Positions 1 to 64,000 of a stretch of DNA of 64,000 nt are shown here, piece by piece (positions within the stretch are counted from its first letter, which is position 1; every line of letters starts with the position of its first letter). The DNA is from Amphiscolops sp. MND2022. Its lineage: Eukaryota. The stretch spans positions 45,572,001-45,636,000 of the forward strand of contig OZ076409.1 of assembly GCA_964187785.1 (NCBI GenBank), written 5' to 3'. A program made the position numbers and the translations under genes. Below the pieces are notes generated by a model. It was not told where the DNA came from. It saw nothing but the letters and a program-made list of their open reading frames with translations, and ran no database searches.

Positions 1-16
1 ACATTGTCGTTAGTTT

Positions 17-1060
17 TTGGACCAATTGATTACAATTGTGCTAAACAGTCCTAGTGTGTCTTCGAAGATTACGAAAGGGCTCTGTAGTTCCAGTCCTGAG
101 ATTTTGTTGGAAGGTGACGAGCATGCCGTTTTTTCATTCTTTGCTGATCTGGCGAAAGTGCTGGTTACATGTGGGGTGTTATCTTCTGACGAGTCGAATG
201 CTGCTGTTACTCAGTTCAGTAGTTATGTTGTGAAGAAGTGGAGATTGCACGATAGATCAGATATCAATGCTAGTGAGATTCCAGATATTGTTCAGTACTT
301 GCGATTTTAGTTTTACTGGTCGTCCAGAAGTTTGTCGCGTATTGAAATTGTGTTGCCTAGTCGTTGGTTTGCCTCGCGTTACCTACCCTCCAGTGTCTTT
401 TGATTTGAGTGGTAGTTCGTTAAGTGAAGCTGCTTCCCAGTGTTGTCTACGATTAGTACAGTCCTACGTGATGAATGCGGGATTTGAACACCAGCAGTTC
501 TTTACTGATTTGATTCTGGATGCCGTCCGTGATGCTATTGCAGATGCTGGTTTGTTTTATGTTACTCCTGGGTTCGACGTCTGAACTATTGTGATCCTGT
601 TGTTGAGTCCTTTATTTCCGACTACCAGAAGTTATACAGTTCGTTTTTACAGGAGCAACGTAGTTCTTCCGAAGCTTATTATGTGGGATGTAACAAAGCT
701 AAGAGACTTGCTCGTTCCAATATTGGGGCTTCCGGATCGGAAACAGGTAGTACCATTAGTGCTACTTCCAAAAAGATGAAGGATGGAGCCTCATCGTCTC
801 GCGGTGTTGCATCTACATCAAAACCCGTAAGCAAGAGCGAGGGGCAGTCTGGTACGCTGAAGAAACCGGAGGGTAGTAAGAAGCAAATTAAGGGTTCCAG
901 TGAAGAAAGAGACCCTGATGTCCATCATCGTGTCAAGTGGCATAAAAACTGTTACAGGCTTTGTTGTTTCGTTTTTATGTGCTTCTTTGATAATCTTGAG
1001 TTATTTTATTGTATACTTTGTCTGTTGAGGCACATTTGTTTTCCGTCGGATTTACTTTAG
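17..1060 (+). pseudogene. 3' part of the antisense accessory gene of element A (frameshifted)
   Basis: ORFs 17-310, 267-584 and 683-1060 lie antisense and convergent to pol. Motifs SSKITKGLCSSSPEILLEG, VLKLCCL..YP and VQSY align with the antisense ORFs of B, D and E. Ser/Lys-rich tail. Confidence 0.8.
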
Positions 1061-22700: not shown

Positions 22701-25700
22701 CTGAAACAACCCTTGCCCAACAAACAATATGTCCTCATGACCGACGCGAACTTCAAGAATGCCGGCTACGCCCTCATGATCGAAGAAAACGCTGACGAAA
22801 AACTGACCTCGGACAAAAAGACATATGACCCAGTCGCGTTTGGATCCAAAACATTCTCGCCGTCAGAAATCAAAATGTCGATATATGCCAAAGAATTCCT
22901 GGCTATATGTTTTGCTTTAATTAAATACAGCCACAACTTGTGGGGATCGACCAAACAAGTCATTGTCCTAACAGACAACAAATCTGTTACACGTTTTTTC
23001 CAAACCAAAATAATACCGCCAGCTTTGTGGAACGCTTGCGATTTTGTCCTACAGTTTAATTTTACAATCGCCCATGTTCCAGGAAGGATGAACACTGCCG
23101 CAGACTTCCTCTCAAGACTTGACCTGGATCCAAAAGAGAAAGTCCAACTACTAATAAGAGACGACATTCAAACTACCCCAATAGAAGTGCACATTCATTC
23201 TTCCAACGTAGCCGAAGAAGAACAATTCTACTTCCTCCCCGAAGACGACATCGAAACAGAGGAGCAAATTTGGGAGAGGAAACAAAGAGCCCGCAAAAAG
23301 ATACAGGAGAACGACACCCCACAAACGCCAGGAGAAGAAATAAACAACAACACAACCCACCATGAAGAAACCACTGTCGTATTTCAAACGGAAATAACCA
23401 GACGTACACAAAACACCGAAGAGAACGAAAGAACCCTCCCCCGTGACATGAGACATCAACAGGACCGAGACAACGTCCTCCGACATTATAAACTACGCCT
23501 ACTCAAAGAACCATATGACGAACACCTCATGGCTACAAACCACAGGGCACTCCAATACACCGCCCAAGAATCCCGGATCATACTCAAAGACTGACTGCTA
23601 TACCGGCAGTATTTCGGACAGACCGGGGCAGTCAAATACCTGCAGGTCTTACTACCAGAACAGTTAGTCGACCCATTTATAGAAGCCCACCACGGATCGC
23701 ACGACAAACATCCTGGGATAACCAAAGTGATACAGCAGTGCAGAGAAAAATACTACTACCCACGCCTTGCAGCAAAAAAAGCCAAACACATCAACCAATG
23801 CGTGAAATGCATGCAAACGAAGCGAACGGATAACCGCCTCCTCACCGCACCGATGATCGACACCTCTAAACTGGCAATGGGACCAGAAGACGCCTTACAA
23901 ATGGATATCGTCCCGTTCGACGAACCTTCCAACGGATTCACAGCAATAGTCACAGCCATGGAAATGTTTTCACGTTACCTATTCACATACTGTGTCACCA
24001 AAATAGACGCAAAGTCAATCGCAAGAGTACTGATAGACATTATGACACGACACGCCTACCTACCTACAACAATAATAACCGACAAAGGAACCCAATTCAT
24101 GTCAGAAGTAGTAGCAGACACCACACGTGTACTGGGAATCCAACTACGTCACGCTACAACAAAGCACGCACAAACGATTCGCATCATGGAATGTTGCCAC
24201 GCATCCCTTAAAGAAGCTCTGAAAATCTCAACGGGAGAAAGACGAACAATGTGGCACCAGTTCGTACCAACAGCCACACTTAACTATAACACAACGTATC
24301 ATTCGGCAATTGGATGTGAACCCAGTCGGGTGTTTCATTGTAGAATACCATACAACGTTCTCGACCTCCAATTTGGCCTTAAACAAAACCAGAAAACAAA
24401 TCCAACAACAGACATAGGCGAAGAAGTTGTCCAAAAGACACGAATGATACATGAATCAGTGAGCAAACACCTCCTCCACTCATACATACGGTACAAAGAG
24501 TACTATGACAAGAAAGCAGCAGCTCACCCATTAACAGCAAACGATTACTGCTATGCCCTACACCCCCAGGCAAACAACCAGGGATCGAAATTACCATTTC
24601 GCGAGTTTTTATGGACAGGACCATTCGTAAAAGTCAAAACTCTCCCCAACAATAACTACCTAATCCGTAAATTCAAACAAACAAAACACAAATCCTACAA
24701 AGGATACGTTTGAAACCATGCCCTACCAAAGACCGTCTGCCAGACATTCAGGTTCAAACAAAGGATTTTCAACAAAACAATGAAGTCGAAATCCTACACG
24801 ATGATTTATACGCACTAGCATGGCAGTCTGGTTTCGAACACTTCGTGATGACACCCGAACGCAACGCGAATAACGAACCTACTATCATATCGACAGACAG
24901 CGAAGACAATCTACAAAATGTTGCCCAGGATGCTGACCCAGACGCCTTTCCAGAAAACCAACCCGATCAACAGGGAACCCAACCCGAACCCGACCCTAAT
25001 CCAGAACCTAGTTCCCCCGGAAAGGAAAAAACAACCTTCGTAGCAACCCCCCTTCAAATTGGAAAAGCGATTATGCTTACTACGACTCTGTGGTAGACGT
25101 AGCCTTCTTCCAACGTAGCCGAAGAAGAACAATTCTACTTCCTCCCCGAAGACGACATCGAAACAGAGGAGCAAATTTGGGAGAGGAAACAAAGAGCCCG
25201 CAAAAAGATACAGGAGAACGACACCCCACAAACGCCAGGAGAAGAAATAAACAACAACACAACCCACCATGAAGAAACCACTGTCGTATTTCAAACGGAA
25301 ATAACCAGACGTACACAAAACACCGAAGAGAACGAAAGACCCCTCCCCCGTGACATGAGACATCAACAGGACCGAGACAACGTCCTCCGACATTATAAAC
25401 TACGCCTACTCAAAGAACCATATGACGAACACCTCATGGCTACAAACCACAGGGCACCGCCCAAGAATCCCGGATCATACTCAAAGACTGACTGCTATAC
25501 CGGCAGTATTTCGGACAGACCGGGGCAGTCAAATACCTGCAGGTCTTACTACCAGAACAGTTAGTCGACCCATTTATAGAAGCCCACCACGGATCGCACG
25601 ACAAACATCCTGGGATAACCAAAGTGATACAGCAGTGCAGAGAAAAATACTACTACCCACGCCTTGCAGCAAAAAAAGCCAAACACATCAACCAATGCGT

Positions 25701-27011
25701 GAAATGCATGCAAACGAAGCGAACGGATAACCGCCTCCTCACCGCACCGATGATCGACACCTCTAAACTGGCAATGGGACCAGAAGACGCCCTACAAATG
25801 GATATCGTCCCGTTCGACGAACCTTCCAACGGATTCACAGCAATAGTCACAGCCATGGAAATGTTTTCACGTTACCTATTCACATACTGTGTCACCAAAA
25901 TAGACGCAAAGTCAATCGAAAGAGTACTGATAGACATTATGACACGAAACGCCTACCTACCTACAACAATAATAACCGACAAAGGAACCCAATTTATGTC
26001 AGAAGTAGTAGCAGACACCACACGTGTACTGGGAATCCAACTACGTCACGCTACAACAAAGCACGCACAAACGATTCGCATCATGGAATGTTGCCACGCA
26101 TCCCTTAAAGAAGCTCTGAAAATCTCAACGGGAGAAAGACGAACAATGTGGCACCAGTTCGTACCAACAGCCACACTTAACTATAACACAACGTATCATT
26201 CGGCAATTGGATGTGAACCCAGTCGGGTGTTTCATTGTAGAATACCATACAACGTTCTCGACCTCCAATTTGGCCTTAAACAAAACCAGAAAACAAATCC
26301 AACAACAGACATAGGCGAAGAAGTTGTCCAAAAGACACGAATGATACATGAATCAGTGAGCAAACACCTCCTCCACTCATACATACGGTACAAAGAGTAC
26401 TATGACAAGAAAGCAGCAGCTCACCCATTAACAGCAAACGATTACTGCTATGCCCTACACCCCCAGGCAAACAACCAGGGATCGAAATTACCATTTCGCG
26501 AGTTTTTATGGACAGGACCATTCGTAAAAGTCAAAACTCTCCCCAACAATAACTACCTAATCCGTAAATTCAAACAAACAAAACACAAATCCTACACAGG
26601 ATACGTTTGAAACCATGCCCTACCAAAGACCGTCTGCCAGACATTCAGGTTCAAACAAAGGATTTTCAACAAGACAATGAAGTCGAAATCCTACACGATG
26701 ATTTATACGCACTAGCATGGCAGTCTGGTTTCGAACACTTCGTGATGACACCCGAACGCAACGCGAATAACGAACCTACTATCATATCGACAGACAGCGA
26801 AGACAATCTACAAAATGTTGCCCAGGATGCTGACCCAGACGCCTTTCCAGAAAACCAACCCGATCAACAGGGAACCCAACCCGAACCCGACCCTAATCCA
26901 GAACCTAGTTCCCCCCGGAAAGGAAAAAACAACCTTCGTAGCAACCCCCCTTCAAATTGGAAAAGCGATTATGCTTACTACGACTCTGTGGTCGTAGACA
27001 CAAGCGGATAA
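19758..27011 (+). pseudogene. pol: pol pseudogene of element B, with the integrase region duplicated
   Basis: PR LVDSGA, RT (21749-22294, frameshifted before YVDD), RH (MTDAN, LTDN) and IN (23727-24713 and 25624-26610). Stops and frameshifts present. Confidence 0.95.
23198..26992 (+). repeat. ~1.9-kb tandem duplication covering the RH-IN linker and integrase
   Basis: Copy 1 spans 23198-25094 and copy 2 spans 25105-26992. The two 328-aa ORFs differ by a few residues. Copy 2 has a 10-bp deletion near 25458. Confidence 0.97.
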
Positions 27012-27458: not shown

Positions 27459-29950
27459 TCAACCTTTGAGCCACATCACTAGACCCGCTAACAGACGCAA
27501 CAGTCTCCGCAGGTTGACCGGCACCACTCGAAGCTGGGCAGAAGCAGAAGCCCCCAGGTGGACAGAAGACACAGCACCAGACCCAGATTCGACGTCTATG
27601 GCAGAAGGCAATTTACTAGTAGGAGAAGTGACAGAGAAAACACATAGTCCGGCAACTTGCCCCATGTAGTAATCATTGAAACTGTCACGAAGGTCGCGAT
27701 ACATATCCTGCCGAGCAAGCACATACAGAGAACGCCAGGGAGCAAAGGTAACATCAGACATGAAAACATGCCCGGATGGTAAATTAGCCTTCAATTCGTC
27801 AAGGCAGTCTTTGTCAGCAGTTATCCAGAGACGAAACCACTGTCAGAAATATACGATTGTACTGCCCGGATCGAAGACAACAGGACCTTCTCAGGAATCG
27901 CAGCCCCACTGAGCGAAATCTTCACCTCCGGATACTGAATTACCCGTGGCACGACTCCAACTGACACTATGCCGACCACCTTTGACAAATGCAGACGACA
28001 CCCCAACAATCCACTCTGCCACAGAAAACGAAAATTGTCCTTGATGGTCGAGATCACTTACCGGTTGCGTTGTCGCAAATCAACCAACAACGATTTGAAC
28101 TCGTTAGCAGAACCCTCGGCCTCCACAGAAGACAACCGCCCACAAGTCTGCAGACAAGATATCAGGTCACGAAACAGCGAAACGGTAGACGCCTCTTCCC
28201 CCATAAGAAGCATGTCCAGGGAAAAACAACTGAGGCTGGAAGACAATCGAGAAATTGCGTAAGCAGACGTATTCAGAACTTTCAAAAATTCCATCAAAAA
28301 TCCATGGCATTCCCGCAGGAAACCCCGCTTGACGGCATCACTGCAACCATCCAATGCCTTGATGACGATAGGCTCACTTCGCAAACAATCGTTGTAGGAC
28401 ACATTAGCCCATGTTGACAATGGTCGCCCAACATACTCACTCCACTCTTCAATAGCAGGCAACTCAGACAACTTCTTCACCTTCCCCAGAAGGCTCCAGT
28501 AGAAGAAACAGAACTCGGCATAATTCCGGCAACTATAATCGGTGACCGATTTGTCAGACTGTGTCTCAAAGTTCGACTGGAAACATGACACCAACACATG
28601 CAACAGGCTCAGACGGGGCAAAATGTAGGTATCTGACACAATCACTTGACGCAAGTCGACAGGAGTCCTTCCACGGGGAGTAGGTGTACTACCACTTTCT
28701 TTGAAGAAGAGTTCAACGTCCTCCCAATGATCTACAATCTCTTCCAGTACGGCACTCAAAGAAGCAAAAGGAATATCCCGGCGTTGAACACACTGGCGAA
28801 ACTCTACAAGCCCTAATAACCAGGGCTGATGAACAGCTTTATCCAAGCGTAATAGCAAGAACTCCAGAACCGCAAAAGGCTCCAAACAATGTGCACCGAC
28901 CATACCTGCTTCCCGAACATGATCCTTGAAGACTGACGACGAATACTCCAGCAAAGAGAGAGGCGATGACCGACCATGTGACCGACACCACTCACTGAAC
29001 ACGTTGAACAAAGTTGAAGAGCAGCCGAACAAAGCAACAAGAGACTGTCCCTCAGCCAAGATAGGTGAAACCCGCGACAAGCAACGGATTTCCGCATCAC
29101 AAATGCTAGTACCGTAAGGCTCCCAAAAGAGGCACACCTCTCGAACACGCCCATCAACTTGACACCGAACAATACAATTGACTCCATTGCCCTCCTCGCG
29201 AAATGACACACTGAATACAGAATCCTTACACCAAGACTGCACTCGACGAAGAACACGAGGATATAACGTCTGACTGAGAATGACAAGGAACTCAGTTTTA
29301 CTCCACGTAGCCTGCGCATAGGTCGACTCGACTGGGATGGTAGCACGGAACTGGTTCCAAAGACGTCGCAGGAAACTATGGGAGCCACCACTACGGAGAA
29401 GCTCAAATAGCCCCCCCACCAATGTTGCAGACGGCACATTCAACACAACACCGACCAGAGCACCCACTTCGTCTTCCCTGAAAATATTCTTCTTCCCCAA
29501 ATTGACAGGAGGAGTTTCTTCAATCTCGGCACGCAATTCCGCCGAAATGGTAGCCACTTCCACAGCATCAAACTGAGGGATGTAGAACACATCCTCATGA
29601 TCTAGTCGATACCGACGATCTTTCAAGTAATGGCTCTTACGGCTGAAATGACGCCAGATCTCAGGAGCACCACGACTCAGGAAACTGATGTCCTTTTGAC
29701 AAATGGCACAATTGAAGCCATTCGGGCTCTTATCCGACATCTGACTCACGAATAATTGAGGAATTGCATGCACGGCGACTTCCTCGCGCAACACGTGCCG
29801 CTCCGTCTGCCTCATCTTCCTGCGTTCATATTTGGCAAACAGTTTATGTTTTGTCTTTTCTTCCTCGTCCAGCTGACTTCCTCGTCCGGGTAGCGGAATG
29901 CCCTTCGACTTCAACAGCCGCACAACCTCGTCCATACCTAAACCACTCAA
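27459..29950 (-). pseudogene. Antisense accessory gene of element B, main exon (~830 codons; C2H2 zinc finger, hAT-transposase-like)
   Basis: 630-aa ORF 28058-29950 continues in frame past a stop into 27821-28057 and, after a second stop and a 1-bp frameshift, into 27459-27794. Motif CAICQKDISFLSRGAPEIWRHFSRKSH. Homologous to the antisense ORFs of A, D and E. Confidence 0.85.
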
Positions 29951-30082
29951 ACGAATGACAACTCAAGTCTTACTCAGGTGATTGACGACACCAAACAAAA
30001 CACACGACCGCCCGCCAAAAATCACCAGACAAATCCAAACTACACATAATTCAACCGACCACAAAAGAAGAGAAAACTTCAC

Positions 30083-31382
30083 TTACGACGTGACAGAGAT
30101 TTTTCTTCCACCCGTGACTGAGATCGTTCCAGACACACAGCCGCTTGACCATAAGTCAGAATCTGACTTGATGACAGACACACTGCCCCGGTAGGCACCT
30201 CCTTCAGGCCAGCTAAACAACATGGAACAGTGAAAATAACTAGCCGCGGAAAACCCTACTGTACATGAAGCTCCTGGACAAACGACGACAACAATGCAAT
30301 CCAAAAAGGCACAACTTTACTTTTTCGCCCATTCATTATGAAGAACAGACTTCTCCAATCTTCAGCAGGACGACCATGTTGCGTGCGCTCATGCCGCGAC
30401 TGTGAACCACTGGGAGCCATACCAGCCAGTTGAAACGGGGAAACATCAGACGACCCGCCGGGCAAATTACCCATATCAGTGAACACGTCTCCCTCCTGAG
30501 GTGAAGGAGTCTGCGCTGAAAACAACACGCAGTAATTACCAAGTTCTGGACCACAACAATGAAACCAAGATACGAACTACCTACCTTCATCGTCTCCACA
30601 AAGGACGCCAGAGAAACCAAGTCCAGGACTGTCATCGGAGCACAACACATCAGTGCGCACCCGCTTTGTTGAGCCACTCGGAATAGCTGAGAGCAGACGT
30701 TTACTGCGACGTGAACCGACATCGCCAGCAGAAGAAGAAGGGGTGAAATCCTCATCACTCGGGTCATCTGAGAGACCTACGGAAACAGAGGTAGATGAAA
30801 TGACGCGTCTGCATACTAGCATCAAAACTGTTAACTGGCCATTAACAAATAGCTAAGCAACCCACCTGATTGTTCCATTAGATAATCCAGTTCATGGCGA
30901 GCATTACTGCCAGAAGAATGGACAGACCCATCATCGTCGTCAGCACGAGCAGAACTGTCTTCAGGAGGAGCATCACCGGAATTCCGATCACTCTCGTCAC
31001 CAGAACTGTCGTCTGTATCAACCTCGCCGAAACCGGCAACTCTACGGGACACATGAACCTCAGCCTCTGACGTGACATTTGAACCAACAGGGACCACATC
31101 GCACAAGTCACCCTCCAACTGAACTTCTCTTCCCTCTTCCACAACGACCAACCGATCGTCAGGAGGCGACTCCACAACAGCACATATCTCATCGACTGCT
31201 CTACTAACAGCACTCTGTTCTGTTGCCCCAGGGACATCAACAATTTGACACGCCTCAGTTTCCACACTCGCATCTCCTGTATCGACTCGTTTCCCTCCCA
31301 AAGACTCACCTTCACTCTCCAAAATTCCAATCTGCTGCGACTTAGCAAAACAGACAGCATCCTCAACAGTAGAATCTGCTAT
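30083..31382 (-). pseudogene. Upstream acidic/Ser-rich exons of the antisense transcription unit of element B
   Basis: ORFs 30831-31322, 30577-30825 and 30256-30528 join in frame if introns 30777-30865 (GTGGGT...TTTCCGTAG) and 30516-30584 (GTAGGT...GTTTTCAG) are removed. A further GTAAGT donor lies at 30086. Confidence 0.65.
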
Positions 31383-34937: not shown

Positions 34938-35809
34938 CCCGGGTTTCCCTCCCATACAAAAACAGGTCAATCATACACTGCCATCATACTCACAGTATGA
35001 TTCCAGGCTGATCATACTCTGGACCATAATGGTTTATGGTTCCAGGCTGACCATACTCTGGACATATATGGTCCAGTCTATGATCAGCCTGGAACCATAA
35101 AAAAGCAAAGTTTATGGTTCCAGCCTGACCATATTCTGGGCCATATATGGTTCAGTCTATGATCAGCCTGGAACCATAAACCTTTATGGCCCAGAGTATG
35201 GTCAGCCTGGAGCCATAAAAAGAAATTTAGGATAATGTAGTCAATTAACACGTACACTGATGAAATTACAAGATATTCCTCAACCAAAGGTCCAATACAA
35301 TCACCAAATTGAAAACAAGGTAGCAATCATCAATTTTGGGCATCTTTTGCTGAATTATTGGTAATTTTTCTCGAAATAATCAAAAATCATACTGCAAAGT
35401 GGGTACTGCTATAACAAAAGAGTTAGTTATTAACTAATGAGTGGCTGAGAACAAATTGAGTTACTATAGTTTGTCTTTAACTCCGCTTAGAGCTTAACGG
35501 AGTTCTGACATGCAATGTATCGTTCGCAGATACAAAAGGTCGAATGTGGCTCCATTGCCCTCAGCCTACAAAGCTGGCTGTTCTCAATATTTGAAAATTT
35601 TTGTTTGAAAATTAAAAAAATATATATTAAAAAAATTTATGATTCCAGGCTGACCATACTCTGAACCATATATGATTCCAGGCCGATCATACTCTGGACC
35701 ATATATGATCCCAGGCCGATCATAGCAAGATCATAGTAAGGAAATTTGTATGATTTCTATGGTGCCATAATATGGTCAGATTATGATCGGCCTGGTCGGG
35801 AAACCCGGG
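34938..35809. mobile_element. Non-autonomous TIR element (CMC/EnSpm-like MITE) with subterminal ~32-nt repeats
   Basis: 12-bp TIR CCCGGGTTTCCC / GGGAAACCCGGG, flanked on both sides by TG (2-bp TSD). Multiple direct and inverted copies of CCAGGCTGACCATACTCTGGACCATATATG. Confidence 0.7.
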
Positions 35810-39866: not shown

Positions 39867-40249
39867 GCGGCCAGGGGAACTGGCTGGCTGCTGATTTCAG
39901 AGGGAATGAACCACTTGCGACGCGGTCTTTTGATGCAAATTTTTAAGCTCCGTAAGTTTTTAGCGTTGATTCGACGCATGTTTAGTCCGGGTTCTTCTGT
40001 TGCTTAGGTTGCTTCGGGTGGGGGATTGGGGGATCAGCAATATACTTTAGATTATGAACGTTTTCTGTGGTTTAGATCATTGTGGAAAACATGGATTCCT
40101 CAAAACTGACTGCTATTGGCAAATTGGATACTGCTGCTTTTCATTCCAAACTTGCAATTACGACGATCTAACTCCAATGAAGTGCGCAGTTTCCGCAACC
40201 GGTGTCAAGAGTTCATTGATCGTTTGCTTGACATCATTCTGTCTTGGTA

Positions 40250-41150
40250 ACACATGGTAACTTCAGACTTCTCCCAGGGGGTTTACCAGGGTGTTTATGC
40301 TCTTTGGCTCGAGGTACCGTTGGGGGGGGGGGGAACGATCACCACGTCTTCGAGCTATTTAAAACGCTGTTGGGGGTGCTGGCGAAAGGTGGTCGAATCA
40401 GCCGAGACGAGTCGGAAGCCAATCTTGAGGAATTTACCTTTTGATTTGATTGAAGTTCGTGTGCACCACCAAGAGTCTGATCGAAGTACCGAGGTGATTG
40501 CTAAAATTCTGTTTTTTCTTCTGGCAGCTAACAACTTTCTCTCCCTGCGTCATTTGAGTCGTAACTTTAAATTGTGTGGTTGGATTGTTCTCAACTTCGT
40601 CTGACAGTCGCCGAGGTTGACGCTAGTAGTTGTGCATTGCCTAATGTGTTCGTGCGGTCTGCTATCAAATGTGTGCAGGGTTACGTCATTTCTCCGAATT
40701 ATAAGCAGGGGGCCTTTTTCACTGTGCAAACGATAGATGTTGTGCGCAAAGCCATCACTGAATTCTGAAAATGTGTGTCGTCAGCTGTCTTGGACTTGTG
40801 GTGCAGAACTTTGTGTTTCTGATTGTGCTGGATTCGTTGTCTTCTATACTGATCGGTTTGAAGCTCATTTGTTTAGGAAGAATCAAATTTCGGGTCCGCG
40901 TTTGTTTGACGCGAATCGTCCTGCTCGGTACGTTCAGCTTCCTGATGCAAGTGGAACGAGTACTACTAGTTCAGTTGTGTCCTGCTCCGAGGATGTTCCA
41001 ATGCTTGCTGGTGCTGCTGGGAGTTCTTTTGCAGTCGCTTCGTCTTCGACTGGTGGCGTCTCCATTGAGGAAAGTGCCTCTGGTTCAGCGCGTCGTTGTA
41101 ATAAGAGGGTTAATACCAGCTAAGTTTCTTTGCTTGGGCGAAAGAAGGAA
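40250..41150 (+). pseudogene. 3' remnant of the antisense accessory gene of element D
   Basis: TSDFSQG, NDHHVFELFKTLLGVLAKGGRISRDESEANLEEF, FKLCG and CVQGYV match the motifs of the A, B and E antisense proteins. Frameshifted. Confidence 0.75.
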
Positions 41151-54021: not shown

Positions 54022-55779
54022 TGTCGCAGGCTGCCGCCTGTGACGGCACATTGATAACGACGTCAGCGCCAAACCAGGAAACCGTCCCAGGTACCCTACC
54101 TACATTTTAAACTTCCATTTGCTGAAACTTGAATTTATGTGTTAACTATGTTCGTTTTGTTTGATCAAGTACATTTATAGTTGTTTGTAGTATTAGTCTG
54201 TTAAAATTACGATTTGGAAATATCCAAATCAGGATGTGTTTTGAAGTTTAGCAGGAAGCTTATTGTAATACAAAATGTAAAATCAATTTGAGGCAATAAC
54301 ACACTGTAAGTAAGTTAATCGCGAGAAGGAAACGTGTTCAAGTGAGAAAACGTCCCTTCTCGGCAACGTAACTTTCAGTACAGCTATTAGCCAATCAGAG
54401 TGCTTCTTTTGTTAATAATGAATGCTTCATTCATGATGGCCGAATAAGGCCTATTGACTGAGCGGTGCTATTTTATGCCAGTCCTTTAGTCAAACAGCCA
54501 ATTCAGGCTAATTCAAGCATATTAATACCTTTGCTGTCTAATTGATTCCATACTTACTCGGAGCTACTAGAATAGTGATTTTAATTTAGACAAATAAATT
54601 GGTGATGCTTTGATGCTTATACATTTTCAACTTGAATAAAAGGACAATTCAGGCCCTTTTACCATGTCCTTTAAGTGTGCAGTGCATGATATGGATTTAA
54701 GACTGTTCCGGCCCTGACATGTGAGTATTTCCTGATATCGGTGCGATATTAAAATTCCATTACATATAGCAGTACATTCCATTCTCAACTTAATCCGCAG
54801 TAAACTTGTGTCGGCACGTGCCTGCACTACCCGCTACAAGAAAATATGTAGGCTAAGGTATTTGTTTGCATCACGGTTGAAGTAAATATTCCCAATGAAT
54901 TGTTTGATGTTGCCGCTTAATATGATGACTTTGAATGCCATTCTGTAAATATTCCCCGGAAATATGTAACCGAAGGGGAATTCCTTTGTGAAATTTGAAG
55001 ATCATATGATCTACTTTCCCTCGCAGGTCATGTAAAGAATGTGATTGTCATTCCCCGAGCAGTATAAATACCACTACCCTGTTGGGGAATTCATTAATCT
55101 GTTCTGATCTATGCGAGTAAAGTTGTACAAAAGCAGTTAACCTGTTAGTTTTCCGGTTCTGATAATTCAAATATTCAACCCGGTTCAGTCTCAATGCCTA
55201 CTACCAGAAAACAAAAGAAAGCAAGGAAATCTAGAGGACTTGAAATTCTCTCAGATATAGAAAACTTGAACGTAATGTTAGGTGAAAATCATTTTAATGA
55301 GACAGAAAGGGACGATAGCTTCGATGGTACTTCCATCAGAAGACAGGAAAGTGTCATCAGTAATAACTTGGAAAATGAAGGAATGAATCCTTACTCTAAT
55401 CATAGAAATTTGGGAGTTGGGACTAGTGCCGATTACGGCCAAAATTCAGCAAGCGCAGATTCCCAAGTTGAGATCAATAGATTGTCGAGTGAATTGAACT
55501 CTAGGATATCAAGGGAAATGGATGAGATGATGAATAATGTTAGTTCCCAGATCCAGAGGGCCATAAACGATGCCATCAATAACCAAGTTTTGCCTCAAAT
55601 TCAAAACGTTATTATGGCCGGCCCGGGACAGGGGACTAGAAGGGGATGGGAGAGGTCCGTAGAGAGACCGGAAGTTTATCCCGAAGTTCCACACAGCTCA
55701 AAAGCCAGAATTAATTCAAACAATGAACAAAGTGAAATCCATCATAGAGGTGAGAAATCACATCATAATGTTCATGACA
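54022..55779 (+). repeat. 5' LTR of element E (1758 bp)
   Basis: Starts TGTCGCAG as in B and ends TGACA before PBS TGGTGACAGGAG (55780-55791). TATAAATA at 55063-55070. Partner LTR not in window. Confidence 0.8.
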
Positions 55780-56906
55780 TGGTGACAGGAGACAACGAAT
55801 CTCCAAATCCAGTTCCTGAGTTTCTCACGGGACGAACCTCATCCAGAGACCATCTCGACGGGTCCTTTGAGGACATCAACCTCGACACGACGATCCCAGC
55901 ACAAGAGAGAATCGCTACGGCTGCTGACTCCGACCCCATCACTCGACTGGCAGACGTCTTGACTACAATGCAGAATAGACCGACAGCACAACAACTCACC
56001 ATACGCCCAGTCAACTCAAATACCATGACATTCGATGGCAAAAGTGAGAAATTCGAGCTGTTCGAAGATCTATTTCACACTATGATCAAGATGCAACCAG
56101 AAATGACTGAGCAAATGAAGATCAATCACTTCCACTCCTTATTGAGGAAGAATGCTCTTCAGACGTTCAGAAACATCAGCTCCAGCAACAGACAAACACT
56201 AGAAGACGTATTAATCATCTTTAGACGAAAATACGTCAAGCCCGAGTCACAGGCAACTGCCAAACACAAATGGCACCGTCTGGTCTTTGATCCCAACACG
56301 ATGAAACTGCCTGATTTCCTTGAAGAATTAAATCAAGGGGCAGAAAAGGCGTTTGGAGACCATGCGCAGAAAATGATTGACAGCTTGCTTTACGCAAAAT
56401 TGCCACCGAAACTGAAACGGTCTGTAAATATGGCCAGACTAGAAAATGGCTCATATGACGAGATAGTTGCTCATTTGGAGAGAGAATTAGAGCTTAACGC
56501 CCTCGAGGAGTCAGACGATTTACCAATAGCAACAATGACTTCCTCATCAACTAAGCCCAAAACCCCTCTGTCCACTGGGCAAATGTCCGATATCACTTGC
56601 AATTACTGTAAGGAAAAGGGCCATATAGTCAAAGAATGTGAAAAATTGAAGAAGAAAAAGGAAAAAGATGCCCAACAAGGCAAACAGACTCAGAAAAAGA
56701 CGTATCCGGAGTGTGGCACATGTGGTAAAAAGAACCACCCAGAGGAAAGATGTTGGCAAGGTGCTGGTGCGCATCTTAAACCCAAACGCACCAGACCAGA
56801 TGACGCCAATGACGGTAAACCCAATCCAAAGGCGCAGAAACCACAAAACAAATCAACATCGTCCAACTCACAAACCTCATCTTCCAATGATGAGTCAAAA
56901 AACTAA
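55194..56906 (+). CDS. gag: Gag, 570 aa, two CCHC zinc knuckles
   Basis: CNYCKEKGHIVKEC and CGTCGKKNHPEERC; capsid-like FDGKSEKFELFEDLF...HFHSLLR. Confidence 0.95.
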   Translation: MPTTRKQKKARKSRGLEILSDIENLNVMLGENHFNETERDDSFDGTSIRRQESVISNNLENEGMNPYSNHRNLGVGTSADYGQNSASADSQVEINRLSSELNSRISREMDEMMNNVSSQIQRAINDAINNQVLPQIQNVIMAGPGQGTRRGWERSVERPEVYPEVPHSSKARINSNNEQSEIHHRGEKSHHNVHDMVTGDNESPNPVPEFLTGRTSSRDHLDGSFEDINLDTTIPAQERIATAADSDPITRLADVLTTMQNRPTAQQLTIRPVNSNTMTFDGKSEKFELFEDLFHTMIKMQPEMTEQMKINHFHSLLRKNALQTFRNISSSNRQTLEDVLIIFRRKYVKPESQATAKHKWHRLVFDPNTMKLPDFLEELNQGAEKAFGDHAQKMIDSLLYAKLPPKLKRSVNMARLENGSYDEIVAHLERELELNALEESDDLPIATMTSSSTKPKTPLSTGQMSDITCNYCKEKGHIVKECEKLKKKKEKDAQQGKQTQKKTYPECGTCGKKNHPEERCWQGAGAHLKPKRTRPDDANDGKPNPKAQKPQNKSTSSNSQTSSSNDESKN

Positions 56907-59900
56907 CTTCGCCACGACTCCAATACAACCAACTAATATCTGTCCGACAATTTATCAGATCGGACCCTCCAACGCAAACTTTCCACCAATACAATCAACA
57001 ATTGATGGGCTATCCCTCTGTTGTCTGGCAGCAACAGATGGAAAAAGCTACCATAATCACCTACAACAATACACATTTGTTCCAAAAACCAATTCCTGTT
57101 TGGGATCCTGATTATACCACAACCTTCACTACCCGTTTCAGGCCCATTCCCCTGATTGACGACTACAACCCAACGTACATCGACCAAGACTATGGCAGAG
57201 ATCCCTATTGGGACACCGAGATCTATAACCAAGATTTGCTGCAATTTCAATACGTCCTGGACGATATTGAACACTACAATCGAACAGTCCACGAAAACCC
57301 TCCGATTACTCACAACAAAAAGACACGAGCACTAATCGAAAACTGGCAAATGAATGATGGCACAAACCATCCAGTGTTCCCAAACCCATTGGGGACCGAG
57401 ACCCATGAGGACGTTGCTCAACCCATACCACAATCACTATTGGACGAGAAACAATTCCAGAATGTCTTAATCACCAGAGACGGTGAACCAGACTGTATAC
57501 CATTGTCGACCAACATCAACCTCAAATGCAAGAAACGCATGTTGTACTTCCCCATGGACTTTGGGGAGCTGACCATAGATGGACTCATTGACACTGGAGC
57601 ATTGTCCAGTGCAATTCCAGAAATGGACCTCCGGAAAATTCGACTCTTATCTCCACAATCTGTTATCCGGGAAGGTCCGCCTCCGAATTTCCAAATTATG
57701 GTCGCTAATGGGCAACTGGAAACGCCCAAAAGCACAATAGAACTTAAATTTGAAGTTGGCGACATTGAGTTTCATGAGATTTTCATAGTCATGGAACACC
57801 TGACAGGTCCGATTATCGGCCTAATGTTCCTTCAACGAAACCACACAGTTCTGGACATGAGACAAGGAATACTGAATTTCCCGTTCTTCTCAATGCAGCT
57901 CAAAACAGCTGACCATAAATACTCAAACGTACTTGAACCAATCCTCAACCCTGCTGAAATAACCGTTCGGCCAAATGACAGAGTCCTAATCCGGACTAAT
58001 TCCCTACTCTACCCTGAGAATGCTGTCACTGGAATTTTGCAACCGAGCGACCTTCTTCACGAAGAAGGCGACATCACCTTTTGCCCAGCTTTGGTCACAT
58101 TGAATGATGGCAATATCTTGATACCAGTGAATAATTTCACAGACCACCCTTACAAACTGAAGAAGGGACTCCATATTGCCAATTTCTCAGTCATGACGCC
58201 AGAACAAATGAAATATGTTAAACCGGTAGACCCGGCATCAACCTGGCATCTCTTGCAAAATGACCAAGAGCAAGCGGCCCATTACGTCAGCAGCCTCATC
58301 AAGACCAACAAAAATCTGCAAAATCCTGAAAACTATTGGTTCCCGACTCCAGAAAATCCTGGAAACCCCGAGGAACACACACCCATACAAAAACGGATCC
58401 TACGTGAGTTACAGGCCTTACAGGACCTGGAGACTCTCGACCCCACCAAAGATGAAGAATCACGTGCAAAATTCTTAGAAAACTTCGATTGGAAAGATTC
58501 CACCCTTACTCCTGAAGAGAAGGAGAAAATAGAGGAATTGTTAGTGGAATTCCACGATATCTTTGCACGACACCGATTTGATATAGGCATGAATGAGGAC
58601 CTCAAGGTAAAACTGACACCTAAAGACGATTCCCCAGCCTATAGCCAAAGTCTTCCGGCTCCTATCAACTTGAAGGACGACATCTTAGTCGAATTAGCCA
58701 TGTTGCACAGATATGGCATCATTACCACACTACCGTTCTCAAAGTATGCAAGCCCAATATTTGCCCAAAAGAAACCAAATGGCAAGCTACGACTTTTGGT
58801 TGATTTGAGAAAAATCAACAACCTTATCTCGGATGATTATATAAACAATAATCACCCTGTTAGCACCCTGGTTGATGCTGCCCAACACTTGGCAGGCAAA
58901 AAACTGTTCTGTAAATTAGACTGTTCACAGGCATACCACTGCCTACCAATGGCCGACCAACGCTCAATAGAAATGTTGGCTTTTAATTTTGCCAGTCGTA
59001 CATTCGCGTACAGACGTTTGGCACAAGGCCTTAGTCGGTCACTATCCGCATTCTCGAGTTTCATGAGGGAATACCTCGACAAAGTCATTAAAGCGGATCA
59101 ATGTGCCCAGTATGTGGACGATATCGGCATCGCAGCCAATGATGTCGACCACCTCATGACGAACCTGAGAGCAACATTCAAATGCATTCAGGAAGCAGGC
59201 CTTAAGTTGACAATGCACAAATGTCACTTCGGTGCAAAAGAAATCGATTTTCTCGGACGGACTATTACCCCGCAAGGCGTCAAACCCCAGAAACAGAACG
59301 TGCAAAACTTTCTGGAAAAGACCAAATTCCCAAAGTCGAAAAGGGCTTTGCAGCGCTACTTGGGATTCTTGAATTACTACAGAAATTATGTCCCAAGACT
59401 TTCAGAACGCCTTGCCCCATTCTACAAGATGCTAAAGAATGACGAAAAGGTCCTGGTATCGAAAGAATTGGTCCAACAATTCGAGGAAATCAACAAAGCA
59501 CTTGACAAATGTTGCGACTTGGCATTACAACAACCCATTCCGAACAAACAAATAGCACTAATGACTGACGCAAGTTTTGGTGCAGCCGGATACGCGGTCT
59601 TAATCGAAGATGACCCCAACCAGAAATTCACGTCACTCAGAAAATCGTATGCACCAGTCGCATACGGATCAAAAACTTTCACCCCAGCCCAGATAAAGAT
59701 GTCAATTTATGCAAAAGAATTCCTTGCAATTTACTTTGCATTCAAAGAATTCGGACATATATTCTGGGGTGCGCCGAACCCGGTCATCATCCTTACGGAC
59801 AACAAAGCCGTCACGAGATTTTTCCAAACGAAAATAATACCCCCAGCCCTGTGGAATGCATGTGATTATGTGATTCAGTTCAATTTTGTCATAGCACACA

Positions 59901-62110
59901 TCCCGGGGGCACAGAACACAGCAGCTGACTATTTGTCCCGATTGGAGGCAGATCCGAAGGATAAATTAGTCATGAAAATCCGTGAGGATGTACAAACTTT
60001 ACCAATTGAAATCAATGTCCAATCCGCAGGGGTGTCGCAAGAAGAACAAATCTTCTACACCAATGACGACGATGAGACAGAGGAACAGGCTTGGGCAAGG
60101 AAAGAAGCAATCAGGAAAAACCCAGCAATTGATGAGCCCACTGTCACTATACAAACTTTGTCAACAAATCTGGTCAAGCAACACCCCGATGTACAAGTCC
60201 GATTGAGGAAAATGAACCAGATCATCATTGAGCAATCCAAAGATACAGTATTACAACAATTGAAGGCGAAACTCCTTCATGAAGACTATCCAGAAAACAT
60301 ACTGCAACAAGATGCTCGATATAGACACTATGCAAATAATCTGGAGCGAATCGTACTCAAGGACGAAATCCTGACAAGGCAATATTTTGATGAAACAGGG
60401 AATGTTAAATACCATCAAATTTTGCTCCCGCAACACCTACTTCGGGAAGTGCTCCACTCCCTTCATGGGACAGCGCATAAACATCCCGGGATTTCAAAAA
60501 TGTTGCAGGAAATCAGACAAAAGTATTATTACCCTAACATGGCAAAACATGTCAAAAAGTGGGTAGAAGGGTGTGAACAATGTGCAAAGGACAAACGAGT
60601 CCCAAACGCAACAATCACGCCTGAACTACTTAACTTGCCGGAATGGGACCTTGGACCCGAAGACGCCATGCAAATCGACTTACTGCCGAACCTTCCCCCA
60701 AGTGGAGGATACGAAAATGTTTTAACTGCAATTGATGTCTTCTCTCGATACTTGTTTGCTTATCCTCTTACGGATGCATCAGCCATCAATGTAGCTAAAG
60801 CAATCATTGATATTATGACCAAACATTCTTACCTACCGACGACGCTCATTACGGACAAAGGAACTGCCTTTACCTCCACGGTCATTGCGGAAATTACACA
60901 GATTTTAGGCCTTACCCTAAAATGTGCAACGACGAAACACCCGCAAACTATCGGGAAATTAGAGCGAACGCACGCCTCATTGAAAACGAACCTGAAAATG
61001 GCATGCGGGGAATATCGCCGACAATGGCATAAATATTTACCTTTAGCAGTTCTCAATCATAACACTAGTTATCATGCCAGTATCGGATGCGAACCCACAA
61101 GAGTGTTCCATGGGAGAATCCCATACAACATATTGGATCACAAACTTGGAATGAATCCAAATGAGCCAATCCATCCGACTACTGAATTTGCCGAAGAAAT
61201 CCAGAACCGGACCAAACTCCTTATTGACAAAACAAAGCAGAACATCATGCAGTCATATATCAAATATAAGGAGTATTACGACCGAAAAGCAAAAGCCGCC
61301 CCACTTAAAGAGGGCGATTACTGTTTTGTATTACAGCCGAAAGCGGATCATCAAGGATCAAAAATTCCATTCAGGGATTATCGTTGGGTTGGACCGTTTA
61401 TAGTCCAGAACACCTTACCTAATGAGAATTACATTGTCCGCAGGCTTAATACAAATAAAACGCAGATATTGCATCGAATTCGTCTCAAAAAGTTTGTTCC
61501 AAATCAGCCACTTGAGGACAATTTCCAAGAACAGCGTCTACAGCCGGATGACGAAATAATCATTCCGCAAGACGACTTGTATGTAATAACGTGGGAAACA
61601 AACTTTGGTGAACAGCTAGATACACGAGGCAGCGAGCCTATTCCGGCCAGCTTGACGAATGACGGACAGCCGAGTACGGCAGAAACGAATGCGAGTGACG
61701 CAAGCGAGAATGAAGTTGATTATGTAATCACGAGTGACGAATCAAATCTCACTGACCGCGCGTCGCATAGACGGAATGAACGACTAATTGAGGACGTCAC
61801 TAAAAGAAATGAAGCTACTGAAGCTATTAGAAATGAAGTATTTGATTGGCCGAATCCGGCCGCCTCCCCAAAAACCCAAGAAAAATATTCGCCGGATATG
61901 GCAAATGGACCAAATGACGATGAAAATTTTCCAGAAAGAAATTCAACGAATGAAAGCGATGCACAAAATTCTCCAAATAGGGGGGATGATATTATCGTGC
62001 CCGAAATACCTGAAAACGATGCTAGAAATGAAAGTCTGAGCCCTAGAGGAGGGAAATATAATCTCAGGCCTAACCCTAATCCAAACTACTCAGAAGATTT
62101 CAGATACTAG
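56903..62110 (+). CDS. pol: Pol polyprotein (PR, RT, RNase H, integrase), in the -1 frame relative to gag
   Basis: Frame is open from 56903. LIDTGA (PR), YVDD (RT), TDAS/KEFLA/TDN (RH), H..H..CEQC, IDL/TDKG/LER (IN DDE), GPF. Domain order is that of Ty3/Gypsy. Confidence 0.98.
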   Translation, partial: LTSPRLQYNQLISVRQFIRSDPPTQTFHQYNQQLMGYPSVVWQQQMEKATIITYNNTHLFQKPIPVWDPDYTTTFTTRFRPIPLIDDYNPTYIDQDYGRDPYWDTEIYNQDLLQFQYVLDDIEHYNRTVHENPPITHNKKTRALIENWQMNDGTNHPVFPNPLGTETHEDVAQPIPQSLLDEKQFQNVLITRDGEPDCIPLSTNINLKCKKRMLYFPMDFGELTIDGLIDTGALSSAIPEMDLRKIRLLSPQSVIREGPPPNFQIMVANGQLETPKSTIELKFEVGDIEFHEIFIVMEHLTGPIIGLMFLQRNHTVLDMRQGILNFPFFSMQLKTADHKYSNVLEPILNPAEITVRPNDRVLIRTNSLLYPENAVTGILQPSDLLHEEGDITFCPALVTLNDGNILIPVNNFTDHPYKLKKGLHIANFSVMTPEQMKYVKPVDPASTWHLLQNDQEQAAHYVSSLIKTNKNLQNPENYWFPTPENPGNPEEHTPIQKRILRELQALQDLETLDPTKDEESRAKFLENFDWKDSTLTPEEKEKIEELLVEFHDIFARHRFDIGMNEDLKVKLTPKDDSPAYSQSLPAPINLKDDILVELAMLHRYGIITTLPFSKYASPIFAQKKPNGKLRLLVDLRKINNLISDDYINNNHPVSTLVDAAQHLAGKKLFCKLDCSQAYHCLPMADQRSIEMLAFNFASRTFAYRRLAQGLSRSLSAFSSFMREYLDKVIKADQCAQYVDDIGIAANDVDHLMTNLRATFKCIQEAGLKLTMHKCHFGAKEIDFLGRTITPQGVKPQKQNVQNFLEKTKFPKSKRALQRYLGFLNYYRNYVPRLSERLAPFYKMLKNDEKVLVSKELVQQFEEINKALDKCCDLALQQPIPNKQIALMTDASFGAAGYAVLIEDDPNQKFTSLRKSYAPVAYGSKTFTPAQIKMSIYAKEFLAIYFAFKEFGHIFWGAPNPVIILTDNKAVTRFFQTKIIPPALWNACDYVIQFNFVIAHIPGAQNTAADYLSRLEADPKDKLVMKIREDVQTLPIEINVQSAGVSQEEQIFYTNDDDETEEQAWARKEAIRKNPAIDEPTVTIQTLSTNLVKQHPDVQVRLRKMNQIIIEQSKDTVLQQLKAKLLHEDYPENILQQDARYRHYANNLERIVLKDEILTRQYFDETGNVKYHQILLPQHLLREVLHSLHGTAHKHPGISKMLQEIRQKYYYPNMAKHVKKWVEGCEQCAKDKRVPNATITPELLNLPEWDLGPEDAMQIDLLPNLPPSGGYENVLTAIDVFSRYLFAYPLTDASAINVAKAIIDIMTKHSYLPTTLITDKGTAFTSTVIAEITQILGLTLKCATTKHPQTIGKLERTHASLKTNLKMACGEYRRQWHKYLPLAVLNHNTSYHASIGCEPTRVFHGRIPYNILDHKLGMNPNEPIHPTTEFAEEIQNRTKLLIDKTKQNIMQSYIKYKEYYDRKAKAAPLKEGDYCFVLQPKADHQGSKIPFRDYRWVGPFIVQNTLPNENYIVRRLNTNKTQILHRIRLKKFVPNQPLEDNFQEQRLQPDDEIIIPQDDLYVITWETNFGEQLDTRGSEPIPASLTNDGQPSTAETNASDASENEVDYVITSDESNLTDRASHRRNERLIEDVTKRNEATEAIRNEVFDWPNPAASPKTQEKYSPDMANGPNDDENFPERNSTNESDAQNSPNRGDDIIVPEIPENDARNESLSPRGGKYNLRPNPNPNYSEDFRY

Positions 62111-62338
62111 AAAAGACTGAATTCAATTCAGGAACCGAGCCCTGAATCGTGCTTTCTTTTCCTTTTATCGTTTTTTTTCTTTCCAGTCCCATGAAGAAAG
62201 TATTTTGAATAAATAATGGGACGTACAGAGATCCCTTACAAAGCAGATAAATAACGGGACCAAAAAACCAAGAATAGTGAAATGAAAATGCAAAACAACA
62301 AAGTTTACAGTCCAAAAAGAACACATATATATGTACAG

Positions 62339-64000
62339 TTAGTCTTTAGATCCACCAGGAGTAGATTCCACCACTACAGAAGAAGATCTGGATCGGGACC
62401 GACTCCTTTCCATGCGTCTGCGCTTGGTATCACTCGGTAGGCGAACAGCAGGAGCATCTCTCACAGAAGGAACGTCAGATGAAGCAACGGTCTGAGCAGC
62501 CCCTCCCTCACCGGAGAGAACGGAACGGTGGGACGACATGAGGGACTTATATATAGATGAGCGACCAAAGGTATCTACATAAGCCCAGGGGTCGTAATCA
62601 GAGCAGAGTCCAGATTGCCCGAACGAAGCAGATAAAAGAGAGAATTTATCAAGGTTGATGTCAGAACAACAAAGGGCCAGAAGGTCTGGGACCTCAGTTA
62701 GATAGCTTTGACAGGGCAAAACCACGTCGGACATTCGGGACTGGAGACCCTTAGTGTCTATCTTCCCCATGACCACTGCGGGGTACTGAGGACTGACAGT
62801 GGTCAAACACAGGCAACTCAGTTTAAAAAGGTAGCAAATCTGGCTGTGGGCATGAAAGAAATCGAGCCCCATGAGGAACTCTATAAGGTCTGCAGATTCA
62901 TTAACGAGGCTAGGGTCTGAAGAATGGTTGACTCGAAGATAATCCAACAGTGCCACGTATTCGTCCCTGCATGAAGCCTCATTTGGACCAGTTACCCAAG
63001 ACCGCAACTGGAAGGTCGAATACAGGATACTGAAGTGTCGGAGGGCTACCTCAGTGGGACGCTTCAGCATGATGTACGGGTCAAATGCGGCCAGTCCTTT
63101 GATAATGTCAGAGCTGAGCCCAGTATGTCGGAGGACTGCTCCCAATAAGTACTCTATGTACTTCTTGGCACTTGCTACGAAGTCAGACTGCGCTGAGTCG
63201 GCAGTCTTGTCGATGTCTGCTTTATTGGACTTCTTGTTGAAGTGTAACCCAGCGGCCTTCAGGGTACTTGCTGCAGCAACCTTAGTAGTCATTTTGAGCC
63301 TGACTAGGAATTCGTCATCCTTCAGGAATTTCCCGTCCCGAGTTGTGAAATTGAGCAGTAGTAACCAAGCATTCTCAAGAGGAATGGTATCGGGCTCGTA
63401 AACGCGGGAGCAGAGCCGACTGATGTACCTACAAACGTCCCCACACAGGTAAAAGGTGGCGTCTCGTCTTTGTAAGAGATTGACGGTGAAGCTTGAGACA
63501 TCTAAAACGCAAAATAAGAAAGGTCCACTTGGGAACTTCGGACTGAGGTGTGTCTAAGCGTAGTCAACTTACAATCACTGACGAGACGTTGGAAGAATTC
63601 CAGTCGGACGGCAAAAAACTCGTCGGATATCAGGGACCACTCGAAGCTTTGAACCTTGTTATGCACCCCTTGGTTCTCTTGCAATCTGGAATGCATGGTC
63701 AAGAAGCGGAGAACTGACTTCCACCGCCTAACCAGGTCGCGGCACAAATCAGGGAGTTTGTTGACTTCCAGTCTGCATGTGGTAATAGCCTAAACATAAC
63801 ATTGCCTCGGAACTAGTAACACAAGCACAACACGTTCCACAGCTCACTCTCCCAGGATCAAAACGGAAATACTAACGCGAGTGAGTTCAGGTGACTCTTG
63901 GACCCAGTCCTCAGTGGTAAATCCGCCCAGAGAGACAAGCAGACACTGGAGAACGGAGAACATGTCTATCCGGCCGAAAACACTGTAGGTATGTTTATGC
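62339..64000 (-). CDS. Spliced antisense accessory gene of element E (exons >64000-63877, 63789-63573, 63501-62339; 5' part outside window)
   Basis: Introns 63790-63876 (GTTAGT...TTTAG, phase 0) and 63502-63572 (GTAAGT...TTTTAG, phase 1). The spliced frame has no stops and is collinear with the 630-aa ORF of B. Confidence 0.85.

Follow-up and report, generated by a model that had tools for sequence, protein, structure and literature searches.

Antisense Genes and Introns in Reverse-Transcribing Elements

LTR retrotransposons are assumed to have next to no introns, since these would be stripped from the genomic RNA by splicing. Accessory genes facing the other way have been described in several systems. 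In plant Ty3/Gypsy elements of the Tat/Retand, Grande and RIRE2 groups, antisense ORFs lie between pol and the 3′ LTR, some of them with a TRP28 or plant mobile domain; their origin and function are called unknown, DNA binding is considered possible, and the Grande ORF is credited with a promoter of its own (PMC7264820, PMC11963269, PMC4408406). HTLV-1 HBZ and the APH genes of HTLV-2/3/4 are expressed from spliced antisense mRNAs and encode nuclear regulators (PMC3185765). As regards introns, PMC12786077 states that his3AI-type reporters lose only introns placed in the sense of the genomic RNA, and that functional spliceosomal sense introns, such as those of Ogre and EVADE, are exceptions among LTR elements. 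Group I introns, in turn, can carry antisense homing-endonuclease genes with spliceosomal introns (PMC9548176).

The 64,000-nt window considered here, that is, the whole stretch of DNA analysed, comes from contig C1 of the 1.07-Gb genome of Amphiscolops sp. MND2022 and holds a 16-kb Ty3/Gypsy LTR retrotransposon, element C, with an intron-bearing gene, facing antisense, between pol and its 3′ LTR. This element's family represents a way round the loss of introns, and does so at scale. A search of the literature proper, with thin coverage of subscription journals, turned up no LTR element whose antisense gene has several introns or whose cargo is of hAT origin. The word "intron" is absent from the main text of PMC7264820 and PMC11963269; supplements, Repbase or Dfam may list intron-bearing antisense ORFs of plants. 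The accessible text on the extra ORFs of bdelloid LTR elements (PMC5408684) mentions neither introns nor a transposase, and that of PMC5131818 and PMC13547354 holds nothing on a spliced antisense cargo.

Element C and Its Copies

The features of element C outside the antisense gene are the following; here and below, positions above 64,000 lie past the window, with its numbering continued.

54022..55779 (+): 5′ LTR, TG...CA, 1,758 nt, with the target duplication GGTGG before it
55194..56906 (+): gag ORF, with its ATG and about 195 codons within the LTR
55780..55791 (+): PBS-like stretch of 12 nt starting TGG, directly 3′ of the LTR and within the gag frame
56894..62110 (+): pol, intact, 1,738 aa, with the order PR-RT-RNaseH-IN of Ty3/Gypsy
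67543-68403 (L031:4543-5403) (+): sense ORF, 286 codons, containing a C-x2-C motif and extending into the 3′ LTR
68315-70071: 3′ LTR, 1,757 nt, with GGTGG after it

Both LTRs have TG..CA ends and are identical at 1754 of 1757 aligned bases. The PBS-like stretch recurs, unchanged over its 12 nt, 3′ of the 5′ LTR of another element in the window, element B. The gag ORF gave weak matches to DUF1759 and zf-CCHC, both below cut-off, and a shortened copy of gag is present in the 3′ LTR (69440-70071). A polypurine tract before the 3′ LTR is absent from family C and its sister family. Positions 68270-68314 of family C, as well as the corresponding region of the sister family (L036-L038), form a pyrimidine-rich stretch ending in CAG that resembles a splice acceptor on the sense strand, and element B has a purine-rich tract before its 3′ LTR. 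Such a tract is usual in Ty3/Gypsy elements, but the assignment stands without it, on the strength of the remaining features and of insertions that are still fresh. In the sister-family copy (L036-L038; C9 near 39.75 Mb) the LTRs differ by an internal deletion and the right end lacks CA.

The sense ORF at 67543-68403 has no Pfam match. Its best Atlas value is 0.87 and the clusters are in part DDE_Tnp_1_7, which serves as a lead only; if real, this ORF would be a second cargo of DNA-transposon origin.

A preliminary description of this DNA had placed the gene antisense inside an LTR retrotransposon and had proposed that it multiplies together with genuine GT-AG introns. All of this has held up. 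The 17 close copies are without exception unbroken from the gene through the 3′ LTR, with matches of 7,057-7,074 nt to a query of 7,070 nt, and therefore the 298 nt of introns have been lost in none of them. Target duplications of 5 bp in differing flanks accompany 10 of the 12 copies checked, so that the introns have passed through independent retrotransposition events. The idea that the antisense orientation shelters the introns proved sound as well: on the strand of the genomic RNA they read CT..AC and are therefore unspliceable there, by the strand logic of intron reporters given in PMC12786077.

The two copies without a target duplication of their own are both on C8, near 12.5 Mb (+) and 24.8 Mb (−). 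The same five bases stand in the 5′ flank of one copy and in the 3′ flank of its partner, the other pair being unmatched, a pattern that possibly goes back to copies recombining, to an inversion or to a join made in the assembly.

Homologous last-exon matches, at least 107 and at least 97 of them, are scattered over the genome. When window positions 60900-62900 were compared with it, 23 of the best 40 matches shared the end of pol at 90-95% and stopped 150-360 nt past it. Near-identical pol genes therefore carry different 3′ cassettes, and these are likely, judging from such alignments, to be exchanged as modules.

Splice Model and Selection

The antisense gene has the following structure, given in its own direction of reading.

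66541: conserved palindromic motif and candidate promoter, 29 nt before the ATG, kept also in the sister family
66512-64503 (−): first coding exon, encoding an S/T/P/acidic N-terminus and then a BED-like finger; past the window
64502-64363 (−): intron, phase 0, 140 nt, at an identical position in clades A and D; just past the window
64362-63877 (−): exon, 486 nt, RNase H-like region (part inside the window, 63877..64000)
63790..63876 (−): intron, phase 0, 87 nt, GTTAGT...ATGTTTAG, with in-frame stops; seen in no clade but C
63573..63789 (−): exon, 217 nt; interrupted 82 nt before its end, in related families and in clades A and D, by an extra intron that family C lacks to the base
63502..63572 (−): intron, phase 1, 71 nt, GTAAGT...TTTTAG, at an identical position in the distant clades A and D
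62339..63501 (−): last exon, encoding the C-terminal part of the hAT-fold core and a basic tail

The two introns lying within the window had been described before, and their coordinates, lengths and phases, the in-frame stops in the first and the quoted junction peptides were all found to be correct. A stop-free frame results from one of the eight keep-or-remove combinations of the three introns, namely the removal of all three. Counted from its first ATG (66512), the spliced product has 1,291 aa. Compared with a profile built from 22 B-type proteins without introns, with which it is colinear, the spliced frame reaches 126.5 bits and the unspliced sequence 37.5 bits; the match of the C protein to this profile (123 bits) extends over about 700 positions. 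The alignment has no gaps at the junctions of the 63876-63790 and 63572-63502 introns.

The comparison was extended to 38 other loci: 16 near-identical copies of family C, 13 members of the sister family, at about 74% DNA identity to family C, and nine loci of further families chosen from the last-exon matches numbering at least 107. GT..AG ends are present at all three introns in 37 of these 38 loci, which are related and non-independent and equal perhaps six or seven independent lineages. The exception is L041, where the acceptor of the 63876-63790 intron is deleted; the 63572-63502 intron has GT..AG ends in every locus. Over the 38 loci these two introns measure 87-105 and 70-80 nt, respectively, and outside family C the lengths of the three introns (64502, 63876 and 63572) are 97-155, 93-105 and 71-80 nt. 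Outside family C, intron interiors show 41-66% identity (leaving aside the deleted intron of L041) and exons 67-76%, with changes mostly silent.

By the measure of codon substitution, the protein is under strong purifying selection. In the 22 loci outside family C, pN is about 0.09-0.19 versus a pS of 0.73-0.85, and some loci with intact splice ends are saturated at silent sites. Among the family-C copies, 15 of 16 have a dN/dS of 0.09-0.23, the sixteenth differing by 0.4% only.

From the DNA we strongly infer that the gene is transcribed in antisense and spliced, and the splicing is almost certainly real. A weak search for already-spliced proteins, made with the last exon among longer proteins, gave none; the 72-aa exon had three matches among longer proteins, all continuing into intron sequence and resembling genomic gene calls.

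Origin of the Antisense Protein

The protein very probably derives from a hAT transposase, as suggested by a structural model of its B-type, intron-free paralogue P0005, to which the protein of element C is tied by the profile match. The AlphaFold model of P0005 has a pLDDT of 72.6. Foldseek puts Hermes transposase in each of the ten top rows (best E 4.4e-5, probability 1.0), and in VIA Hermes is retrieved with Z 11.8 over 400 residues at an rmsd of 5.3, a Z below the caution level of about 13 set for largely helical proteins; the next row has Z 6.5, and Hermes is the only chain above Z 8 among 48,161. The neighbours in Atlas, a language-model comparison, are hAT families at 0.91-0.94, including the domesticated ZBED5, FAM200 and GTF2IRD2. 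One C exon folded alone from a single sequence reached a pLDDT of 33 and was discarded.

Sequence methods gave no such match. Pfam found no hAT family (Dimer_Tnp_hAT), BED, TRP28 or plant mobile domain in the antisense exons; profile-profile alignment with hhalign to six hAT transposases of this genome gave probabilities of 0.2% or less, and a PDB search by sequence yielded no meaningful match. DUF4371 had 0 matches across the genome, where the control was silent too.

Comparison by eye with the genomic hAT transposases adds some detail, at positions that we take to be the hAT-like catalytic ones. A BED-like C-x2-C...H...H pattern is recognizable in clades A, B and C, and the RW-x-S motif is present in C. 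The first catalytic Asp is replaced by Glu in clades A, C and D, no clade has an acid at the second catalytic position, and the CxxH histidine is absent; near the third catalytic site, B-type proteins keep an invariant acid. The protein, which also has a long low-complexity N-terminus, is thus most likely a catalytically dead derivative, the catalytic loss being judged by eye, and the gene is classed as hAT-derived rather than as a hAT transposase. The preliminary description had spoken of a host-like multi-exon gene spread through RNA. Its spread with introns stands; "host-like" is not supported, since the protein family has a hAT transposase fold, which makes the gene a cargo taken from another transposon.

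Paralogues and Intron History

Homologues of the antisense gene are carried by all four LTR elements in the window. Besides that of element C, these are:

1..581 (+): 3′ end of the antisense paralogue in degenerate element A
28058..29962 (−): antisense paralogue of element B, with a core lacking introns and three to four GT-AG introns upstream, at about 29940-30870
40232..40765 (+): remnant of the antisense paralogue in degenerate element E

The convergent layout beside pol is found in elements A, B and E and in the distant clade D (L081, L082), and clade A proteins are only about 22-24% identical to those of C. Element B had been taken to be intronless, a view that is rejected here, as only its core is free of introns. 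The GT of its upstream introns is retained in four to six of the six aligned copies. One candidate 5′ intron of this gene, at about 30780-30865 (−), is nearly unchanged in relatives at 68% identity, unlike its neighbours, and may hold a regulatory element.

Some repeats were also observed. Element B has a 1.9-kb tandem duplication of the integrase region (window 23198-26992) at 99% identity, which either arose very recently or is an artefact of assembly. Direct and inverted repeats, short and with a 42-68 nt unit, occupy window positions 34996-35677, and a long tandem array lies upstream of element A (L039:1-5283). Searches of IMG/VR with the integrase and of JGI metagenomes with the cargo profile gave no confirmed relatives. 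Database homologues of the cargo say nothing on other species, the one checked being a 100% match to this genome.

The positions of the introns are informative about their history. Clades A and D have introns at the codon and phase of the 64502 and 63572 introns of C. A further intron is common to clades A and D and six loci of the C clade (L042-L047), where it measures 101-113 nt; it bounds an exon of exactly 82 nt in the four cases measured, the intron of A being read in part. The same intron is absent, to the base, from family C, the sister family, L040, L041 and L048. Recombination with the cDNA of a spliced mRNA removes introns exactly. Intron loss is the simplest reading because the position is shared across clades, and the exact absence therefore counts as indirect evidence of splicing. 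In the tree of the C clade the root is placed among intron-lacking families with a support of 32-50, and so a single loss is not confirmed by the tree.

Element B has none of the four core introns. It is nested among intron-bearing clades in a midpoint-rooted cargo tree with long branches (5.2 and 2.8), and the integrases of C, B and A/D are about equidistant in a comparison that holds no outgroup integrase; the core introns were either lost in B or gained in the other clades. Since the intact genomic hAT transposases compared here are single long ORFs, introns may have been gained inside the retrotransposon.

Proposed Mechanism and Alternatives

Taken as a whole, the evidence is probably best explained by a hAT-derived, spliced antisense accessory factor. 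An ancestor of this Ty3/Gypsy group would have taken up a hAT transposase gene in reverse between pol and the 3′ LTR, a place where the gene is found today, the hAT origin being suggested by the fold. Its transcription would use the opposite strand and probably start at an internal promoter some 1.8 kb away from the 3′ LTR, and the transcript would, on strong grounds, be spliced like that of a normal gene. The genomic RNA, in which the introns read CT..AC, would hand them through reverse transcription to every new copy, as is seen at the DNA level. The protein would retain its BED-like finger and the scaffold of a transposase; the catalytic residues would be gone (as judged by eye), and the protein would have gained its long low-complexity N-terminus. 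Its most likely role would be that of a nuclear DNA-binding factor acting on the element's own DNA, either aiding expression or shielding it from silencing, and we put this function forward with some reservation. Occasionally, the reverse transcriptase of the element would copy the spliced antisense mRNA, and recombination with the cDNA would remove an intron exactly; such loss is suggested because family C misses an intron to the base and the core of B is intron-free. More tentative is the proposal in its full form, in which a Ty3/Gypsy lineage domesticated a hAT transposase as a spliced, separately promoted regulator, the antisense orientation keeps the introns, the copies record intron gain and exact loss driven by reverse transcriptase, and the protein is a sequence-specific anti-silencing factor.

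Other readings share the spliced gene and differ in what it would be for. The introns themselves might be selected, with splicing allowing the accessory mRNA to escape the HUSH-type silencing of long intronless transcripts, an escape through splicing of the sort that the preliminary description had suggested; a study of HUSH is said to describe the silencing of intronless elements. In agreement with this, every clade that was examined in full has three or more introns, at differing places (in the core in C, in the 5′ part only in B). A DUF3715 (TASOR-like) gene, scoring over the Pfam cut-off, is present at G000:C2:66668205-66668627 in a 1,194-codon frame, which permits the idea and does not support it. 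This gene is also of interest for the distribution of HUSH components. However, antisense introns persist by default and selection is unnecessary, a successful young family misses one intron, and the first coding exon of family C runs for about 2 kb without any; the escape from HUSH is therefore rather doubtful, and the introns may persist simply because nothing removes them. It is unlikely, too, that the same hAT-derived protein serves integration targeting or nuclear import, binding cDNA ends or the integrase and tethering them to chosen chromatin. Transposase scaffolds bind transposon ends and target DNA, and the long low-complexity N-terminus could bind partners. Similar roles have been suggested for plant antisense ORFs (PMC7264820). 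Against this, the ten target duplications have no obvious motif, and near-identical integrases accompany different 3′ cassettes, contrary to a tight pairing of integrase and cargo.

The remaining alternatives concern the nature of the gene itself. A host gene would account for the multi-exon structure, and the Atlas neighbours ZBED5, FAM200 and GTF2IRD2 make capture via a domesticated gene possible; yet the gene lies within the LTRs in all 17 close copies, which rules out a neighbouring host gene, the last-exon homologues are dispersed in the genome (at least 107 and at least 97), and the best candidates scored include no single-copy host version, so that a host origin, captured or neighbouring, is quite improbable. 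There is similarly little to recommend a hybrid element able to cut DNA with a still-active, highly diverged transposase or nuclease. The entire hAT fold is retained, and C has the RW-x-S motif and an acid at the first catalytic position, but the second catalytic Asp is missing in all clades, CxxH is not seen by eye, and the target duplications are 5 bp at the LTR ends, as for an integrase, and not 8 bp; we regard this reading as very improbable. Finally, if the introns were GT..AG stretches arisen by chance in an ORF that has decayed or shifted its frame, one would expect neither a single frame-restoring solution, nor ends that are conserved while the interiors drift, nor positions common to clades whose proteins have diverged so far, and such an origin is extremely improbable. 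The preferred reading, a hAT-derived spliced accessory gene, is compared with known systems below.

Implications and Comparison with Known Systems

The element C family makes plain that copying through RNA need not deprive an element of a gene with introns, even over very long times, provided that the gene is turned the other way: an intron-rich gene has been carried until its proteins diverged to about 23% identity, with the intron positions unchanged. The many copies offer a natural setting in which to test both the cDNA model of intron loss and the notion that mobile genes are protected from silencing by their introns. If the proposed scenario is true, a class II hAT transposase in an animal Ty3/Gypsy lineage would be a transposon domesticated by a transposon, and hundreds of copies would record intron gain and loss beside the very enzyme that causes the loss. 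A DNA transposase is thereby offered as the origin of one class of antisense accessory gene, an origin called unknown for plants in PMC7264820. On the practical side, ORF-based annotation of transposons would fragment and overlook intron-bearing genes of this kind.

Like the plant aORF-3R, the gene of element C is antisense, lies between pol and the 3′ LTR, is kept across families and possibly binds DNA. Unlike the plant ORFs, it resides in an animal-sized genome, combines a hAT fold with three or four spliceosomal introns in each gene, and has no TRP28 or plant mobile domain match. With HBZ and APH it shares, in all likelihood, the condition of a spliced antisense gene in a reverse-transcribing element. 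While HBZ, a bZIP protein of 206 aa, has its start in the 3′ LTR, element C encodes a 1,291-aa transposase derivative with short introns, in a dedicated region without a long sense gene, and with presence and absence of introns between families. Element C can be regarded as a natural mirror of the his3AI reporters, as its introns are in the sense of the cargo gene and therefore kept. The introns of Ogre and EVADE, on the other hand, stand in gag-pol in sense orientation and depend on alternative splicing, whereas the antisense introns of element C can be constitutive. The group I intron case is likewise one of a mobile element with a spliced antisense gene, but it involves homing at the DNA level, no reverse transcription and an active enzyme. 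As in Hermes, ZBED5, FAM200, GTF2IRD2 and DAYSLEEPER, the cargo of element C has the fold, an RW motif and, as judged by eye, a BED-like finger; in contrast to hAT transposases and their domesticated forms, the catalytic set is apparently lost, Pfam recognizes no hAT family, and the owner is a retrotransposon, not a host. Antisense accessory genes of LTR elements are thus already known, and what is new in element C is a cargo that is multi-intron and, in all likelihood, hAT-derived.
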